Virus record (IMG/VR): IMGVR_UViG_3300020470_003436
Coordinates: 7,065-71,064 of that record
Length of the DNA stretch: 64,000 nt
Strand: one strand, 5' to 3'
DNA from: a virus
A program made the translations under genes and the position numbers. The notes beneath the pieces are model-generated. The model worked only from the letters and a program-made list of their open reading frames with translations. It had not been told where the DNA came from and did not search any database. This document shows, piece after piece, positions 26,338 to 60,067 of this stretch (positions are counted from its first letter, which is position 1; every line of letters starts with the position of its first letter).

Positions 26338-26481
26338 TTGGAAGATGATTCATATATACATCTAGAAAGAGAAGCCGCTAAGCGGCGACATCCGGCTTAT
26401 CAGAGCAAATATAAAAGCTTAGGTAAGGTTTTTATTAAGTCATTAGCGAATACGCTAAATCAACAGAAGGAGCAAAAGTAA
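26338..26481 (+). CDS. small hypothetical protein (47 aa, RRHPA motif)
   Basis: Read by hand: AAGGAG SD, TTG start, and a TAA overlapping the sigma ATG (TAATG). Confidence 0.55.
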   Translation: MEDDSYIHLEREAAKRRHPAYQSKYKSLGKVFIKSLANTLNQQKEQK

Positions 26482-27395
26482 TGGCAGGGTATGTTGAGAG
26501 TTCTAAGCATAGAATACTTACCAGAGAAGAAGAAACAGTTTTGGGTCGTGCAGTTATTGAGGGCGCTGAAGCCCAAGAAAAATTAGATGCCTTAGGTGAA
26601 GATCCAGATATTAGGCTGCACAGAAAACTTCAAGCAGCAATTAAAGAAGGTAAAAGAGCAAAAAATACGTTTGTTGAACACAATTTACGCTTAGCCATGG
26701 ACACTGCGGCTCGCTATGCTCGTTCTCAGACTCGTATGGAGTATGAAGATTTAATCCAAGAAGCGACGATAGGGCTAATGCGTGCTGTGGATAAGTTTGA
26801 CCCAGAGCGTGGTTTTAAGTTTTCTACGTATGCAACATGGTGGTGTAGGCAAGCGTGCCAGCGTGCCATAGCAAATAGTGGTAGGGCTATACGTTTACCT
26901 ATGCATGTTGAAGCCGATGTTCGTAAATTAGCAGCGGTTGTTGAAGAGTTTGAATCAAGAGAAGATGGGTTTAATCGTAAAGACTTAGCATACTTTCTTG
27001 AATGGGACATGGATAAGTTAGATAATATTTGGTCTCATATGGAAAACACTAGGCTTGAATCTATAGATAACGCCATAACAGAAGGAAGCTCTTTACAGCA
27101 TGTTGATACTTTGATTGATCCAAACGCTATTAACGTGGAAGAAGCGGGCATGGAGACAAGTTTTGCTAAATCAATTATGGATGCCTTGTCAGTGTTACCT
27201 GAGAGAGAGTTACAGGTTTTAAAGATGCACCATGGTTTAGCGGACGAAGAACGTCCACTAACACTGCAGGAAATTGGCGAACGAATGGGCTTAACAAGAG
27301 AGCGTGTTCGGCAGTTAGAAGCTAAAGCGATTGCTCGCTTGAGGCATCCTGCATCGGGTGTGGCGTGGGCGTTTAGCTTTGAGAACATGGAATAA
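26481..27395 (+). CDS. RpoD/SigA-like sigma-70 factor (regions 1.2, 2, 3, 4)
   Basis: LTREEE, NLRL, DLIQE..GLMRAVDKFD.ERGFKFSTYATWW and TLQEIG..GLTRERVRQLE..LRHP. Confidence 0.93.
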   Translation: MAGYVESSKHRILTREEETVLGRAVIEGAEAQEKLDALGEDPDIRLHRKLQAAIKEGKRAKNTFVEHNLRLAMDTAARYARSQTRMEYEDLIQEATIGLMRAVDKFDPERGFKFSTYATWWCRQACQRAIANSGRAIRLPMHVEADVRKLAAVVEEFESREDGFNRKDLAYFLEWDMDKLDNIWSHMENTRLESIDNAITEGSSLQHVDTLIDPNAINVEEAGMETSFAKSIMDALSVLPERELQVLKMHHGLADEERPLTLQEIGERMGLTRERVRQLEAKAIARLRHPASGVAWAFSFENME

Positions 27396-54432: not shown

Positions 54433-54503
54433 TTTTTCTCCTCTTGTTCAGTAATACGAATATAGCATATATTTGGTTGCTTGTCAAGTCTTACCTAAGA
54501 AAT

Positions 54504-54536
54504 AGGGGAGGGTAGGCAACCACTCTACCCTCCCCT
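54504..54536 (-). terminator. stem-loop between the AAA and vWA genes
   Basis: AGGGGAGGGTAG/CTACCCTCCCCT 12-bp stem. Confidence 0.65.
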
Positions 54537-54576
54537 TAGCGGTACGGAGGGATAACCACTTCCTCCGTGTTTTGAA

Positions 54577-55281
54577 CTATTCCGTTCGGAAGGTATCTAT
54601 TTTGATTGCTTCCAAGAAGGCGTTTGCCCTCTCACCAAGAATCACCTTAGAGGCTTCCTGCTCTCCGATTTTACGAGAGAGTTGGTTAAGGGATTGAAAC
54701 AGTCGCAATGACATGCGCTCACTACCAGCGTCAGCCATACGAGATGCATAGTCTCTCCAGTGTGGAGGAAGCGTCTCTAGTGCTTCTGGGTGTGGACGGT
54801 CAATGCGTAGTCGCACTGGGAACCTGTCTACTAGTGCAGTAGGTAGTTCCTCAACATGTTCTACGTTAGTAGTCATTATGACTTTGAAACCCTGTTGGGG
54901 AGTATGAACTTCACCAGTGATAGGGTGTTCCCATGTAGCAGACCCATCAGAGTCAGTCATGTTAAGCAGGGTAGCGAATACGTCACCACCAGCCTTGTCA
55001 ATTTCGTCAATGACAAGTCTATGTCCTGCCCATGCTTTAATAGCGGAACCTTCTACATAGGAGAAACCCCCATCTGCGGAAGGTAGGAACCCACCAGTAA
55101 CGTCCATGTTAGTCATGTCGTCCGTGCAGGTTAGTCGGTATGCTTTGCCACCTTCAGGTTGGTAGGCGTGCATCGCCGTATATGTTTTGCCAGTTCCAGG
55201 AGGTCCAAAAAGAATCACCCTGTCTATTCCGGCTTCTAAAATGCTGTTGAATGTATCCCAACAGTTGCTTTCGGTACTCAT
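54577..55281 (-). CDS. MoxR/CobS-like AAA+ ATPase
   Basis: GPPGTGKT, LVIDEID, MTTN and ALVDRF. Confidence 0.9.
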   Translation of the reverse strand: MSTESNCWDTFNSILEAGIDRVILFGPPGTGKTYTAMHAYQPEGGKAYRLTCTDDMTNMDVTGGFLPSADGGFSYVEGSAIKAWAGHRLVIDEIDKAGGDVFATLLNMTDSDGSATWEHPITGEVHTPQQGFKVIMTTNVEHVEELPTALVDRFPVRLRIDRPHPEALETLPPHWRDYASRMADAGSERMSLRLFQSLNQLSRKIGEQEASKVILGERANAFLEAIKIDTFRTE

Positions 55282-55389
55282 CTAAACTCCTCTTGTTTAG
55301 TTGCTTTAGTTAAGCGACTTGCTCAACTTGTTAAACTCACTTTAGCATACTTTCGTTTGCTTGTCAAGTCTTTATCTGAATTATTTGCT

Positions 55390-55420
55390 GGTGGAGCAGA
55401 AAGCTTTTCTGCCCCACCAA
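55390..55420 (-). terminator. stem-loop after the DUF932 gene
   Basis: TGGTGGAGCAGAAA/TTTCTGCCCCACCA inverted repeat. Confidence 0.6.
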
Positions 55421-55453
55421 CAAGACCCACTATATCATAGGGGTGTGACATTC

Positions 55454-56362
55454 CTATACTAGCCCTCCTGCTAATGCTATTTCCTTGAAGGATTCGGTAA
55501 GTGATTGATTTCTCTCCGGCTTACGGAGAACGTCAATTTGCTTTTCCGCTTTTGCTTTTGTAGCAGTATGGAACTCATAGGATTGGAATGCGTTATATAG
55601 CGCCCAAGCGTTTTCGCCGACTCTATCCGCTTCCTCTTGATAGAAGTAGTCAATGGCTTCAATTCGTTTATCAGCGAAAGAAACCGCTTTACCACTTGCA
55701 TCTTCGTCAAGCGTAGGTAAGATTTGGTCACGGATACGTCGGTACGTTACTTGGTTGAAAGTTATCCCTCTCATGTAAGTAGCGTTAGATGTAAACGTGT
55801 CAAATACTGACGACGCTTGTGCTAGAACCAACGCTTTGCTAAATAGCATAGCATCGTGGTTCTTAGTTCGCTTTTGACTTAGTTGTAACAAACCCATAGG
55901 GATTTGGTTAGAACAGAATGGTCTGAAAGCGAAACCATATACCGCTGTCGCCCATGTGCTGTCAAGTGACCCAGTGTACATGAGATGACTTGTCACAGTA
56001 TCTCCTCCACCTAAGTCTTTTGACTCACCAAGTTCTTGGGTAAACATTACTTTCTCGCCGTTGCCGAGTAGTTTGAAGTCTACGCAAGAATTAGGGAACA
56101 TAGCGTCAGCCGTTTCATACAGAACTTTATATGAGTCTGCATGATACGTTTGTGATACTGCTGGATTCAGTAGAACTTGAGAACCGTCTGCTTTAGTTCT
56201 GTAGATGGTCCTAAATTGTGCTTCACCTTTGGACTCTGGAACTGTACCGTCAGGTAATGTCAGAGGCGCTTGTTCTGGCACAAATAAGGCATCAGCATCT
56301 AACGCAGAGTCTATGACGCTGGTTCCTGCTTCTACTTTATCCGATGAATCATACATTGGCAT
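55454..56362 (-). CDS. DUF932-family protein
   Basis: L.NGEKV, S.D, R..CSN and NAWALYNA..EFH motifs. Confidence 0.75.
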   Translation of the reverse strand: MPMYDSSDKVEAGTSVIDSALDADALFVPEQAPLTLPDGTVPESKGEAQFRTIYRTKADGSQVLLNPAVSQTYHADSYKVLYETADAMFPNSCVDFKLLGNGEKVMFTQELGESKDLGGGDTVTSHLMYTGSLDSTWATAVYGFAFRPFCSNQIPMGLLQLSQKRTKNHDAMLFSKALVLAQASSVFDTFTSNATYMRGITFNQVTYRRIRDQILPTLDEDASGKAVSFADKRIEAIDYFYQEEADRVGENAWALYNAFQSYEFHTATKAKAEKQIDVLRKPERNQSLTESFKEIALAGGLV

Positions 56363-56618
56363 TGTTGTTTGCTCCTAATTGTTAAGGTGGGGTTTTTCCC
56401 ACTAACCAAACCTTAGCATAGATTTGGTTGCTTGTCAAGTTTTATTTAAGATTTCTTTTAGTGGTACGATACGCCTCTTTGGTGAGGGTATGTCTTTTCA
56501 TGCACTCGGTAGCATGGAACACATATCTTACTTGTTCCATCATCTACATAGATTGCTGTCTCTGGGTCCACATTGGCTATGCCACAGTGGTCGCAAAGGT
56601 AAGGTGTAATATATCCCA

Positions 56619-56888
56619 TTAGTCAAATACTATGGTAACGCTTTTAACTCGCTTACCTTCCATGTCTGCGTAGACTGGATAGTTACCATCTCCGATATAT
56701 GTGCTAGTAGCAACTCCGAGTTCAATTTCGCCTGCGCCTTGTTCTATCGTAACATCACAAATGTCAAGATAAAGTTGGTTAAGGTTTTTGTCGTCGGTGT
56801 TATTGTCCGCTAATACATAGCATGGGTCAATTAACATTATTTGTCCGCTGTCCACTGGACAGTGACCTATTAGTTTTCCTTTTGGCAT
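56619..56888 (-). CDS. DUF4241-like small protein
   Basis: VDSGQ....DPCY and T..GDG.YPVY. Confidence 0.65.
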   Translation of the reverse strand: MPKGKLIGHCPVDSGQIMLIDPCYVLADNNTDDKNLNQLYLDICDVTIEQGAGEIELGVATSTYIGDGNYPVYADMEGKRVKSVTIVFD

Positions 56889-56992
56889 TTCTGCTCCTTC
56901 TCTTAGTGTCCCATCACTGTAGCACAGATAAAGTTTGCTGTCAAGTCATTCTTTGACTTGACAAGAGTTACACTGTGTGCTATAGTGCTTTT

Positions 56993-57280
56993 CGTGGTCA
57001 GTGCCACTAACTCTGGTCCATATTTGGAATACGAGTTAATAATGCAGACGGTAAGGGAGAGGGTTGGAATACCGGACTCCACCACAGACATATAAAAAGT
57101 ATGCACCTACTAAAAGGTGCTATGGGAGTTATTGCCCATAGGAAGGGGACCAAAGAAAGCACATAAGATGCCGGACGGTAAAGGGTTACAATAACCTACG
57201 GCAGTCGGACGAGAGCCTAGCGTACCTATGTCTTACGCGAAGCCAAAGCCCACGCTAGATATTCCCTCTCCTTCCTTTAG
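56993..57280 (+). ncRNA. candidate structured non-coding RNA (~290 nt)
   Basis: Consensus promoter (TTGACA 56958, TATAGT 56981), no SD-led ORF, and several complementary segments. Confidence 0.6.
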
Positions 57281-57470
57281 AGAGTGTGCGTAGGGACACC
57301 ATTGAGTGTTCTTGCGCACATTCCTATGTCTTTTTTTATAGCCCCGCATTAACGAAACGCTTAAGCCCCGATATTTTTTTCAGCTCCGGGACTATTAGAC
57401 TTAAAATAAGCGGGACTTCACTCTCCCTCTCTTTTTTTAAGCAGTTTTACTCCTTGCTTAGGGAGTGTCC

Positions 57471-57635
57471 TTAGATTGTGACTGGAGAACCTACTTCGTA
57501 AACGATGGGTTCTTGGTCGGTGGCTCGGAGCCATCTTACTTGCTCCTCAACTTCTGCAAGTGAGTCTGCAAGATAAAAAAAGTCGTCATCTTGTTCATCT
57601 AACACGATGTAACTTATGTGGTTTGCTAGTACCAT
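57471..57635 (-). CDS. small acidic hypothetical protein
   Basis: AAGGAG SD and its own TTGACA-17-TATAGT promoter. Confidence 0.65.
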   Translation of the reverse strand: MVLANHISYIVLDEQDDDFFYLADSLAEVEEQVRWLRATDQEPIVYEVGSPVTI

Positions 57636-57771
57636 TATTTCTTCTCCTTGTTGAAACCCACTATAGCATAGGGGTGTGACATTGTCAAGTCGGGCGCACA
57701 ATCGCGATTGTAGGCTGGCAAAGATTAGGTAAGACTTGACAGGGTAAAGAAAGTGTGCTACTATCGTAAAC

Positions 57772-58254
57772 ATGAAGAAAACTAAGAAACCCAACAAAAA
57801 CCATTGCTGTGGTCACTGCTCCTTAGCGGAGGACATCAAAGCAGGTAAAGTTAGATACAAGATAACATTTGGTCATTGCGAAGGACAATCATGCGCCCAC
57901 GACCCAAACTGGGGTCCAATGGAGAAGCGTGGTGGAGCGAAGCGCTGGGCTACTACAGAGGAAGCAATAGAGCATCTTGCTCGTTTATGCGCTAACGCTA
58001 AAGGGCACACTAATCCTAAAGATAGAGTAGTCGTGCCAGAGATTAGGCGTGAAGGACAACGTATCCTTAAAGCAGGAACTAATGTAACTGTTCAATTAAA
58101 GCGTAAGTCTGGTACGAAGCGTGACGATGGTTTCGTCATAGAGTGCTACGATGATAACTACGTTAAACTTTATGTGGGGTCGCTTAACGAACAGGTGACA
58201 GTGCTTGCTGACGAGTTCGTTAAAGCAAGACGAGGAACGACCAGAGTTCTGTAA
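57772..58254 (+). CDS. hypothetical protein (Cys/His N-terminus, SH3-like C-terminus)
   Basis: TTGACA-17-TACTAT-7-ATG. Confidence 0.65.
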   Translation: MKKTKKPNKNHCCGHCSLAEDIKAGKVRYKITFGHCEGQSCAHDPNWGPMEKRGGAKRWATTEEAIEHLARLCANAKGHTNPKDRVVVPEIRREGQRILKAGTNVTVQLKRKSGTKRDDGFVIECYDDNYVKLYVGSLNEQVTVLADEFVKARRGTTRVL

Positions 58255-58369
58255 TGTCACACCCATGTGCTATAGTGGTATTTATCAAGTCGGAAGGAAA
58301 ACTTAGATAAGACTTGACAAGCATAGCAAAGTGTGCTATGGTGTTATTTAACAACAACGAGGAGCAATA

Positions 58370-58753
58370 ATGAAATTATTTGATGACTTTCAAAGTGGTA
58401 CTTTCAAAAGAGAAGGGTATGACGGAAACATATCTGTCACACTCTCTGATGATGGTCGCTACATCTCAATCCATAGTGGAGACAATACTACTTCACGCAT
58501 AAAGAACATAACACTTCACCAGAGTGCAATTACTGGTAAAGTTGAAGTAAACATTATGTGGGGAGAGTTTATCTACACATACAACACTGACGAAGATATT
58601 TCGTTCGGTGACCTTCTAGCAATGTTCATAGTAACTGGTTTCTCTTTCGGAAAGTTTGGAAACTTTGTTAAGAAGAACTTTGAACTCACAAGCAAGTGGG
58701 ATATTCAAACACGAGCCCATGTTATATGGCGAGGCGAAAAGGTGGAAGCATAG
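58370..58753 (+). CDS. hypothetical early protein
   Basis: Promoter plus GAGGAG SD. Confidence 0.7.
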   Translation: MKLFDDFQSGTFKREGYDGNISVTLSDDGRYISIHSGDNTTSRIKNITLHQSAITGKVEVNIMWGEFIYTYNTDEDISFGDLLAMFIVTGFSFGKFGNFVKKNFELTSKWDIQTRAHVIWRGEKVEA

Positions 58754-59004
58754 TGAAAGCACCTGAAGGGTACACAATCACTCCACCTGACCATACTCCA
58801 CCTGAAGGCTATGCCTTCGGGGGAGTCTTAGGTAAGGTGATAAACTTCCTAGAAGAAAACGAACAGTACGGAGACGACTGGTCAGAAGAACTGACAGAAC
58901 TGCGTAGGTTTTGTACAGATGCGTCATACGTCGTGTCTGGCTGGGAAGATTTTGAACAACTAAACATTGAGGACACTATTGACGTATTAACGAGGCTCAT
59001 ATAA
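58753..59004 (+). CDS. hypothetical protein
   Basis: TAGTG coupling to the previous gene. Confidence 0.6.
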   Translation: MKAPEGYTITPPDHTPPEGYAFGGVLGKVINFLEENEQYGDDWSEELTELRRFCTDASYVVSGWEDFEQLNIEDTIDVLTRLI

Positions 59005-59210
59005 TGAGCGGTAAATACTACGACATAACGGTATCCAGAATGGAGCGCTATAAGGTTAGAGTCTTAGCGGATAACGCTGATGACGCTAAGGAGCGTGCCT
59101 TCACCTACGGAGTCCACATGAGCGGTGTGGAAGATTTAGGTAGGGTTTGTGTAGCGGAGTCTATCAAGATGAGCGTACCACAAGAACATTACAATCCAGA
59201 TAAGGTTTGA
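59004..59210 (+). CDS. hypothetical protein
   Basis: TAATG coupling; V.A...DA.E.A motif. Confidence 0.6.
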   Translation: MSGKYYDITVSRMERYKVRVLADNADDAKERAFTYGVHMSGVEDLGRVCVAESIKMSVPQEHYNPDKV

Positions 59211-59258
59211 CAAAGTAAACAATCTGTGCTATACTGGCACTAACAAAAGGAGACAAAT

Positions 59259-60011
59259 ATGCCAAATTGGTGTGAAAACTATTTAGAAGTAAGCGGACCT
59301 AAAGACGACGTGCAATCATTCTTTGAGCGCATACAGTCAGGGGTAGAAGAAGATGAGAACGGTAAGAAGCAAGTAATTTTTGACCTTACTGACAATCTAA
59401 TGCCTATGCCTGAAGTTTTACGAGGCACACGCTCACCAGTACCTACAGGAGAGTTTGACGCAGATGGTCAGTACATGGAACTTGTTGAAGATGAATCTAA
59501 CGAGTTTTGGACTCCAGAGAAATACGAGGAACGTAAGAAAGAACATAACGACCTCGTAGCGCAAGCAGAGAAAGCGAAAGCGGAGACTGGCTACTCTGAC
59601 TGGTATCACTGGGCGAATAGCATGTGGGGAACCAAATGGGGTTCTTGTGACATGCGTTGGAACGGTGGCGAAAACATAGACGAAGAAACTGGAATTGGTA
59701 CTAGGTTCTTTGAGTACGAAACAGCGTGGGGTCCACTACAGGAGGACTTCTGGCTGTCAGTATCAGAGATGTTCCCTACCCTAAAGTTCACTATCTACTA
59801 TGAAGAACACGGTATGTGCTTTCACGGAATAGACTCTTACCACGAGAGTGATGTTGTCTACTCCATGTCAGACGACCTGCCTCAACCAAGCGAGGACATG
59901 TCAGACGATGAGCAAGAGTCCTTCTATGACGGAGAAAACTACTACGAACTGATAGAGGCTAAGACTACTGAATGGTACAAGCAAATAGAAAAGGTCTATC
60001 AAGAAGTATAA
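59259..60011 (+). CDS. DUF1281/YubB-like ferredoxin-fold protein
   Basis: MPNWCEN, WY.W...WGTKW, ETAWGP and YEE.GMCF.G. Confidence 0.8.
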   Translation: MPNWCENYLEVSGPKDDVQSFFERIQSGVEEDENGKKQVIFDLTDNLMPMPEVLRGTRSPVPTGEFDADGQYMELVEDESNEFWTPEKYEERKKEHNDLVAQAEKAKAETGYSDWYHWANSMWGTKWGSCDMRWNGGENIDEETGIGTRFFEYETAWGPLQEDFWLSVSEMFPTLKFTIYYEEHGMCFHGIDSYHESDVVYSMSDDLPQPSEDMSDDEQESFYDGENYYELIEAKTTEWYKQIEKVYQEV

Positions 60012-60067
60012 CTTGACAGATAACCTTATCTGTGCTATAGTGGTTTCTAACAACAAGAGGAGACAAA

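Follow-up and report, generated by a model that had tools for sequence, protein, structure and literature searches.

What is made from a strong promoter that is not followed by a recognizable gene? This question is raised by positions 56958 to 57337 of a virus DNA stretch of 64,000 nt, which was analysed as a whole (the window) and comprises bases 7065-71064 of the 71,064-base virus record IMGVR_UViG_3300020470_003436. An original prediction, made before any database had been searched, had proposed that this promoter drives an abundant early phage non-coding RNA (ncRNA) that is highly pairable and possibly represents a new class. It had also named three checks, namely a comparison with Rfam, covariation among homologues and a look for transcripts; these gave no family match, homologues with compensatory changes, and contigs from RNA libraries of three studies that lie inside the predicted RNA. 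Based on these results and on the gene layout, the locus is very probably a genuine stand-alone structured ncRNA gene. Furthermore, its RNA is a mosaic of two modules, one of which contains a covarying hairpin and pseudoknot.

Results

The promoter TTGACA-17-TATAGT is present as originally described. It matches 11 of the 12 positions of the sigma-70-type consensus and also has the TG before the -10 box, and it belongs to a class, TTGACA-N14-TGN-TANNNT, of which 24 sites are found at one mismatch or fewer compared with 2.0 expected. Nineteen of the sites are exact, including the RNA promoter, and 16 of these 19 lie within 54459-63958, on both strands and upstream of small genes. Transcription is predicted to start at ~56993-56995. 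Seven further exact promoters of this class were noted in 60013-63006, where there are few open reading frames (ORFs) of at least 60 amino acids, and more small RNA or micro-ORF units are possible in that region.

The absence of an ORF led by a Shine-Dalgarno sequence, which had been claimed for the stretch behind the promoter, was borne out. The ORFs that overlap 56903-57474 are all short (25-67 amino acids), none of them is Shine-Dalgarno-led downstream of 56986, and none of five ORFs matched either PHROG or Pfam at E<=0.1. The sole terminator-like site on the + strand downstream of the promoter is a hairpin at 57282-57323, which gives a predicted primary transcript of ~340 nt (from ~56994 to the T-run at 57331-57337) rather than the ~290 nt first proposed. 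The next gene (57471-57635) is convergent, being encoded on the opposite strand with its own promoter (57660-57688) and Shine-Dalgarno sequence, and the + strand gene at 57772 likewise has its own promoter at 57736. The transcription unit therefore consists of the promoter, ~340 ORF-less bases and the hairpin.

Homologues of the RNA were reached through relatives of a neighbouring 89-amino-acid protein, whose alignment led to 80 metagenome loci among the 135 loci (1.23 Mb) compared in total. A search of the 135 loci with nhmmer, using the window stretch as query, gave four matches, L056 (E-value 4.5e-22), L057 (1.4e-18), L102 (1.1e-8) and L062 (5.4e-8), and a profile search returned the same four loci together with a single site in the phage's own genome. 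The copies in L056 and L057 are cut by contig ends. That in L062 is a compact RNA of ~135-140 nt (folding z-score -3.39), in which a single-stranded 5' end is followed by two hairpins and then by a terminator of 12 pairs and its U tail; the L102 version is similar except for an insertion of ~85 nt, and both versions (135-220 nt) have their own promoter and a 12-pair terminator. Two further loci, L069 and L045 (a stretch of record G016), encode RNAs of ~340-480 nt (z-score -3.71 for L045), which lack the 5' block and have the central part in common with the window RNA. All six homologue copies have the same promoter type, either 7-9 nt ahead of the conserved block or where the gene starts, and wherever the 5' block is present it starts 7-9 nt past the -10 box. 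The RNA gene follows the same 124-amino-acid gene in L062, L102, L069 and L045, and in L062 and L045 it also faces a convergent gene.

In the searches made, homologues were found only in this handful of uncultured marine phage contigs. The window, L045 and L102 RNAs gave no blastn match, and a neighbouring 302-amino-acid protein no tblastn match, in 50,697 phage records; searches of IMG/VR with the same protein and with a 160-amino-acid neighbour found no relatives. Five IMG/VR loci encoding a relative of the 89-amino-acid protein (43-47% identity) contain neither the RNA, as judged by nhmmer, nor the promoter class. In 21 IMG/VR records that share the phage's DNA polymerase (73-99% identity) the RNA stretch was matched only at a 16-24-nt GGGACACCAT motif, in five of the 21. 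The gene for the 302-amino-acid protein occurs in just three of these records and, in further loci, genes fill the position upstream of it; synteny is therefore not kept. Pattern scans of IMG/VR detected no further copy of the window RNA: the pattern for module 1 (see below) had no match there or in GTDB species genomes, and that for module 2 had three matches in IMG/VR and ten in GTDB, none of them with a paired stem or passing model R1 (best E-value 0.87). Among 25 viral records, model R1 found only G016 at a meaningful E-value, with G018 at 0.48, and among 81 sources it recovered just the four on which it had been trained (the window, L056, L057 and L069) plus two chance-level matches at 0.88.

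The comparison of the homologues revealed a mosaic of modules in place of the single closed ~200-nt domain that had been envisaged. The 5' block, module 1, occurs without module 2 in L062 and L102, module 2 occurs without module 1 in L045 and L069, and both are present in the window and in L056/L057.

The strongest evidence for a conserved RNA structure comes from module 2. Hairpin H, which contains the predicted CTATGGG/CCCATAG pairing, is paired in 94% of the alignment cells, and three of its seven pairs are changed on both sides among five sequences, one position reading G-C, C-G and U-A across the homologues. Its covariation score was reached by none of 500 shuffles and slid controls scored far lower. 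The loop of this hairpin pairs with a strand farther downstream to form a pseudoknot, which was tested by script because MAFFT misaligned the pseudoknot strand of the window. All five sequences have one exact complement of the loop, 6-7 bp long and located 5-10 nt past the same conserved anchor, the two overlapping 6-mer matches in the window representing one 7-bp site. The pairing reads GUUAUU/AAUAAC in the window, AUCACU/AGUGAU in L056/L057 and GUCACU/AGUGAC in L069/L045. A complement to the loop arises by chance anywhere downstream in 8-12% of shuffles per sequence, and three independent versions at the same place would be hard to get in this way. This conserved pseudoknot takes the place of the TGGTCC/GGACCA pseudoknot of the original prediction, as TGGTCC is invariant while its partner reads GGTCCA in L056/L057 and is missing in L062/L102. 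It also replaces a local hairpin (GGUUA/UAACC) from minimum free energy (MFE) folds, which was dropped because L057 lacks its 3' strand. In addition, module 2 contains conserved unpaired stretches, namely ACCAAAG (UCCAAAG, AACCAAG or AACCAAA in homologues) and ACGGUAAAG..., and a second copy of the motif ACGRWARRG. The latter, although chosen post hoc, is present twice in each of RNAs A and B, a number reached by one of 500 shuffles. We also observed that L045 (10155-10330, - strand) and L069 (1775-1925, - strand) share a further 3' module that includes a long-range helix, GGCUUGAAGG...CUUCAAGU. The window lacks this part, which may represent a third module of the family.

Module 1 is conserved in a different manner. 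The TAACTC/GAGTTA pairing, which forms the outer stem of hairpin HP1, is kept in all five sequences, and according to RNAalifold the stem changes solely from A-U to G-U, at two pairs in two of the five; such changes preserve pairing in the + strand RNA but would not be tolerated in its complement. The GTGG and CCAC segments of a 5' hairpin, which had also been predicted, do exist but are not conserved in L062 and L102. The motif UGGAA, again selected post hoc, occurs in two to three copies per module-1 RNA compared with ~0.3 expected, and one copy is located in the HP2 loop.

All eight complementary segment pairs listed in the original prediction were found at or near their claimed positions. 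The description of the RNA as highly pairable holds for the number of such segments, there being 13 perfect Watson-Crick segments of at least 6 bp in 56994-57278 compared with 6.3 +/- 2.2, about twofold, in shuffles (none of 200 mononucleotide shuffles reached 13), but not for the folding energy of the same body without the terminator, which has an MFE z-score of just -1.71. The stretch 56990-57340 has z-scores of -4.67 (+ strand) and -2.48 (- strand), the former value being mostly due to the terminator hairpin, and folding energy by itself is insufficient to establish a structured RNA. Three of the eight pairings, GCACCT/AGGTGC, AGACATA/TATGTCT and CTAGCGT/ACGCTAG, are specific to the window, and the 3' domain has one 10-mer in common with L045. 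The possible long-range closing helix has a local alternative, read by eye, in which 57055-57063 pairs with CUCCACC at 57077-57083.

It had been stated that the RNA could not be assigned to transfer-messenger RNA (tmRNA), RNase P, 6S/Ms1 or an intron, and this is in agreement with the family searches. Rfam 15, which covers tmRNA, RNase P, 6S, Ms1, group I and II introns, riboswitches, self-cleaving ribozymes, pRNA and known small RNAs (sRNAs), gave no match at gathering thresholds across the whole window; with permissive filters (E<=10) it gave only three chance-level miRNA matches (E-values 3.4-9.3) in 56800-57600. ARAGORN detected neither tRNA nor tmRNA genes in the window. Readings of the RNA as signal-recognition-particle-like, CsrB-like or pistol-like had no Rfam match and were dropped.

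Sequences that match the locus are present in RNA libraries. Six RNA-library runs contain 15-20% of the sampled words of a 591-base query, and contigs from three of them, each from a different study and all seawater runs of 2025, were compared over 3.6 kb. In each of the three runs a single contig (256-262 nt) is contained completely within the RNA, and the ends agree within 5-6 nt across runs. Among the matches listed, these RNA-run contigs had no loose ends, and a more divergent contig of the DNA run X5 (record 13) continued to 57518. The RNA-library contigs represent one variant, for which four differences are listed: 57123 T>C and 57138 A>G, which compensate each other in hairpin H (U-A to C-G), 57072 C>T at the edge of the HP2 loop (G-C to G-U at most) and a 2-nt insertion after 57091 in a non-conserved stretch. 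The contigs begin at the base of HP1 and end within the 3' strand of the possible closing helix, which would fit trimming back to stable structure; for the RNA ends they are a weak hint, and they do not prove transcription. The flanking genes are represented in the RNA runs only by short pieces, most of which have low identity. X15, X16 and X18 have no cover in 57336-59000, and all 30 bins are covered by the DNA run X5; as missing cover is no proof, neither observation was counted as evidence.

Table 1. Positions of the RNA gene, its parts and neighbouring features in the window
Feature	Position	Strand	Description
RNA gene promoter	56958-56986	+	TTGACA, 17-nt spacer, TGn extended -10, TATAGT
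Module 1	56995-57085	+	Conserved 5' block from ~+1/+2 of the predicted transcript
HP1	57008-57013 with 57033-57038; inner stem 57017-57019 with 57026-57028	+	RNAalifold
HP2	~57063-57077	+	UGGAA in or beside loop, then CUCCACC
Module 2	57120-57195	+	Hairpin H and pseudoknot strand
Hairpin H	57120-57141	+	7-bp stem, 57120-57126 with 57135-57141; 8-nt loop AGUUAUUG, 57127-57134
Conserved unpaired ACCAAAG	57149-57155	+	Varies in homologues (see text)
Conserved ACGGUAAAGGGUUACA block	57175-57190	+	Second ACGRWARRG copy; first at ~57048-57056
Pseudoknot 3' strand CAAUAAC	57189-57195	+	Pairs with loop GUUAUUG, 57128-57134
Hairpin GCACCU/AGGUGC	57103-57120	+	MFE folds; window-specific, in no homologue
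3' domain	57203-57263	+	MFE folds; window-specific; includes CUAGCGU/ACGCUAG (57217-57223 with 57252-57258)
Possible long-range closing helix	57054-57063 with 57264-57273	+	MFE folds; 10 bp, AGGGAGAGGG/CCCTCTCCTT
Terminator-like hairpin and T-run	57282-57323; T-run 57331-57337	+	18 pairs; encloses GGGACACCAT at 57293-57302
RNA-library contigs	X15 57012-57271; X16 57012-57265; X18 57007-57266		Wholly inside the RNA
CGGGACTATTA box	57387-57397	+	Downstream of the RNA; 3 exact copies, all +, against 0.62 expected
Divergent twin promoter, same class	56916-56944	-	Drives the 89-amino-acid DUF4241-like gene; context, outside the RNA
DUF4241-like gene (89 amino acids)	56619-56888	-	Weak Pfam match; PHROG 5209

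The window encodes a tail sheath, a baseplate J protein, a family A DNA polymerase, a sigma-70-like protein and tail fibre proteins. The polymerase is at most 43% and the sheath 33% identical to proteins of cultured relatives, in both cases actinobacterial phages, which are remote and do not fix the host; polymerase relatives at 73-99% identity are found solely on uncultured viral contigs. The stretch occurs in sequencing runs of metagenomes from marine, freshwater, sponge and air samples. The sigma-like protein (26481-27395, + strand; 304 amino acids) has sigma-70 regions 2 and 4 and might steer the host polymerase onto promoters not of the sigma-70 type later in infection. The 89-amino-acid protein has 45 cluster relatives, is related to proteins encoded on 190 mostly marine metagenome stretches (of which 80 loci were kept) and has close relatives at 90-99% identity in a large protein collection, where P0002 and P0003 are 90-94% identical; across loci its gene is far commoner than the RNA gene.

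Short repeats are found within and downstream of the RNA gene. GGGACACCAT is present in eight exact copies, all on the + strand (48908, 49451, 50065, 50481, 51248, 51751, 57293 and 61506), it is conserved in relatives, and it is the sole part of the RNA region that was found by blastn. An exact CGGGACTATTA (49493, 50108 and 57387, + strand) stands 42, 43 and 94 nt behind three of these copies, and the composite of both also follows the RNA genes of relatives. At 48908 and 49451 GGGACACCAT begins ~7 nt past a -10 box, and the CGGGACTATTA at 49493 lies directly against the ATG of an ORF that has no Shine-Dalgarno sequence. Possible roles of GGGACACCAT are those of a 5' leader common to several transcripts, of a site for processing or of a second type of promoter, used by the sigma-like protein of this phage. 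Tandem repeats and A/T tracts lie downstream of the RNA genes in L062 (1480-1620, - strand), L102 (100-290, - strand) and L045 (10060-10170, - strand). Such repeats in relatives include five copies of CGACT and three of CGACCAGCA; they are followed by a composite GGGAYACCAT...AAGYCCCG...GGACTATYT, which is linked to the RNA gene in all four full-length contexts.

Discussion

In this study, we asked what is produced from an apparently gene-less promoter of an uncultured marine tailed phage, and the results point to a stand-alone structured ncRNA. We propose that host RNA polymerase would start at the extended -10 promoter, a member of a class that clusters in a probable early region, and that the primary transcript of ~340 nt would end at the terminator-like hairpin, after which a core of at least ~265 nt (57007-57271) would accumulate. 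Early expression is suggested by the promoter class and the gene neighbourhood. The RNA may also be abundant, as had been predicted, although contigs are unable to rank it. The RNA would join two separable modules, UGGAA-bearing 5' hairpins and a hairpin with an H-type pseudoknot whose second strand lies ~55 nt downstream, and it would most likely act in trans as a protein-binding decoy or scaffold, each module offering its own platform to which factors of the host or the phage could bind while the cell is taken over. We favour protein binding because module 1 conserves whole hairpins and not just an open seed, because short motifs recur as they do in RNAs that bind several protein copies, because the modules occur separately, and because module 2 forms a compact pseudoknot in which unpaired purines are conserved. 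Furthermore, the phage's own genome offers no antisense target longer than 11 nt, which fits protein binding better than an antisense action in cis. As a whole, this explanation including the binding of proteins in trans is plausible but tentative, and we hold it with far less assurance than the existence of the RNA gene itself.

Several of our observations weigh against this interpretation. The repeated motifs were picked after looking at the sequences. GGA is only mildly enriched in the window RNA (9 compared with 5.3 expected, reached by 31 of 500 shuffles), and it is not enriched in L062, L069 and L045; sponges of the CsrB/RsmZ type display many GGA motifs in hairpin loops. None of 17 pairs in module 1 shows a compensatory change, and each module is represented by only four to five distinct sequences, which makes for thin statistics on covariation. 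Of 200 shuffles, 12 fold as well as the body, and the folding energy of the L057 body is likewise unexceptional (z-score -1.02). The T-run begins 7 nt past the terminator stem, so that the efficiency of termination is uncertain. The contigs give neither the strand, the true ends nor the level of the RNA, DNA can be present in RNA libraries, and the three studies possibly belong to a single campaign. Lastly, the short version in L062 resembles a classical base-pairing sRNA.

This last point leads to an alternative in which the RNA is a riboregulator, with the block at the 5' end as a seed for host or phage mRNAs, the hairpins and the terminator as stabilizing elements and the pseudoknot as an add-on. 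It would explain why the conserved block stands at the very 5' end in all module-1 copies, it agrees with the layout in L062, where an open 5' end is followed by two hairpins and a terminator, and it is consistent with a module 1 that is constrained by sequence and not by covariation. However, the conserved sequence lies mostly within HP1, on both of its strands, rather than in an open seed, and a covarying pseudoknot domain of ~80 nt would be unusual for such an sRNA. Complementarity to the phage genome does not exceed 11 nt, the only genome covered by this comparison, and the RNA-library contigs begin at 57007-57012, past the putative seed, which is a weak argument. We regard a base-pairing function as somewhat less likely than protein binding, but as a serious alternative. 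A cis-acting leader, be it a riboswitch, a processive antitermination element or a transcript of the lambda pR' type, would have the same arrangement of a strong promoter, an ORF-less structured stretch and a terminator, and it would control read-through into downstream genes. Such cis-regulatory readings fail because nothing co-oriented directly follows the terminator: both downstream genes have promoters of their own, the nearer one is convergent, as is the gene faced in L062 and L045, and there is no match to a riboswitch family. A leader function is accordingly very unlikely.

The remaining alternatives are more improbable still. The locus could be a DNA-level element, that is, a replication or regulatory region primed or activated by transcription with the RNA as a by-product, and repeats and A/T tracts do follow the RNA genes, as seen in the AGCCCCG boxes at 57340-57420, the tandem repeats of L062 and L102 and the GGGACACCAT...CGGGACTATTA composite. 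These repeats are, however, located outside the RNA body, whereas within it compensatory changes keep the RNA pairings and the G-U substitutions are strand-specific, which argues for selection on the RNA and makes the DNA-level explanation highly improbable. Equally remote, in our view, is a self-cleaving, catalytic or otherwise processed RNA whose mature ends at ~57007 and ~57271 would be made by cleavage. Contigs of three runs that begin past the predicted start, end before the terminator hairpin and agree closely with each other would be consistent with this idea, as would the compact pseudoknot fold, but contig ends are poor evidence of RNA ends, trimming by host nucleases to stable helices would give the same ends, and no ribozyme family is matched although Rfam 15 includes the known classes. 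Finally, the small ORFs that overlap the stretch could be taken to represent a gene for a small protein or what is left of a gene that has decayed. Besides lacking a Shine-Dalgarno sequence and database matches, these frames are not maintained: gaps of 1, 4, 7 and 16 nt separate the conserved nucleotide blocks in the homologue alignments and would break any frame, and a 14-codon frame in L062 is shifted relative to that of the window. A coding function can hence be set aside almost entirely.

To our knowledge, almost none of the phage-encoded ncRNAs has been assigned a function, and for few of them do comparative and expression data both provide support. The window RNA has a gene that extends from promoter to terminator, a pseudoknot supported by covariation and a presence in seawater RNA libraries of several studies. 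Its evolution is unusual in that structured modules occur alone or combined among related phages. If the modules bind host factors, the RNA would be a takeover or counter-defence device made of RNA in abundant marine phages, and a new RNA fold. In the most far-reaching version, which we consider doubtful, it would represent a new modular class of phage RNAs, seen in ocean RNA libraries, whose modules are exchanged like protein domains, each capturing a different host factor as a decoy for takeover or counter-defence, and which would include an H-type pseudoknot motif not described before, whose 8-nt loop is conserved and whose linkers are rich in purines. Either way, it is a concrete candidate for Rfam and for biochemistry.

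Known RNAs provide several points of comparison. Trans-acting sRNAs of bacteria and prophages are expressed from their own promoter, have a conserved 5' end or seed and finish in an intrinsic terminator, a hairpin followed by a U tail. This is precisely how the L062 version is arranged, whereas the window RNA is two to three times longer and contains an autonomous pseudoknot module. The pRNA of phage phi29 is likewise a structured RNA expressed from an early promoter, and its loop-loop pairing covaries between diverging phages; however, pRNA is an Rfam family while the window RNA matches no Rfam model, and the covarying pairing of the latter is read as a pseudoknot within one molecule. The '6S' transcript from lambda pR' also starts at a strong constitutive-type promoter and runs through ~200-340 nt without an ORF to a terminator. 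In contrast to this leader, the window RNA has no co-oriented operon behind its terminator, the next gene being convergent, and the conservation of its structure points to a function of the RNA itself.

The window RNA can also be compared with ncRNA candidates from phage transcriptomes and from uncultured viruses. The former, such as ncRNA1 and ncRNA2 of PAK_P3 and those of phiKZ, are described as abundant RNAs of 89-210 nt of unknown function that are conserved among close relatives only; most derive from 5' or 3' untranslated regions, and PAK_P3 ncRNA1 and ncRNA2 have no start site of their own (PMC10914365). The window RNA is similar in being phage-encoded and confined to close phage relatives, but differs in having its own consensus promoter, a terminator, a covarying pseudoknot and shuffled modules; no sequence relation was found, the blastn search of the 50,697 phage records being empty. 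The comparative analysis of uncultured viral contigs in IMG/VR yielded 8,495 intergenic candidates termed csRNAs, many from marine phages, with a mean length of 67 nt and of unknown function, which were reportedly scored by covariation only (PMC10690425). The window RNA is far longer than this mean. Literature searches found no description of this RNA, with the entries of the csRNA catalogue (PMC10690425) outside the comparison. While phage ncRNAs as a kind are already known, the family, the pseudoknot and the modular spread appear to be new, and the window RNA would be the first of a small family of modular RNAs to be described.

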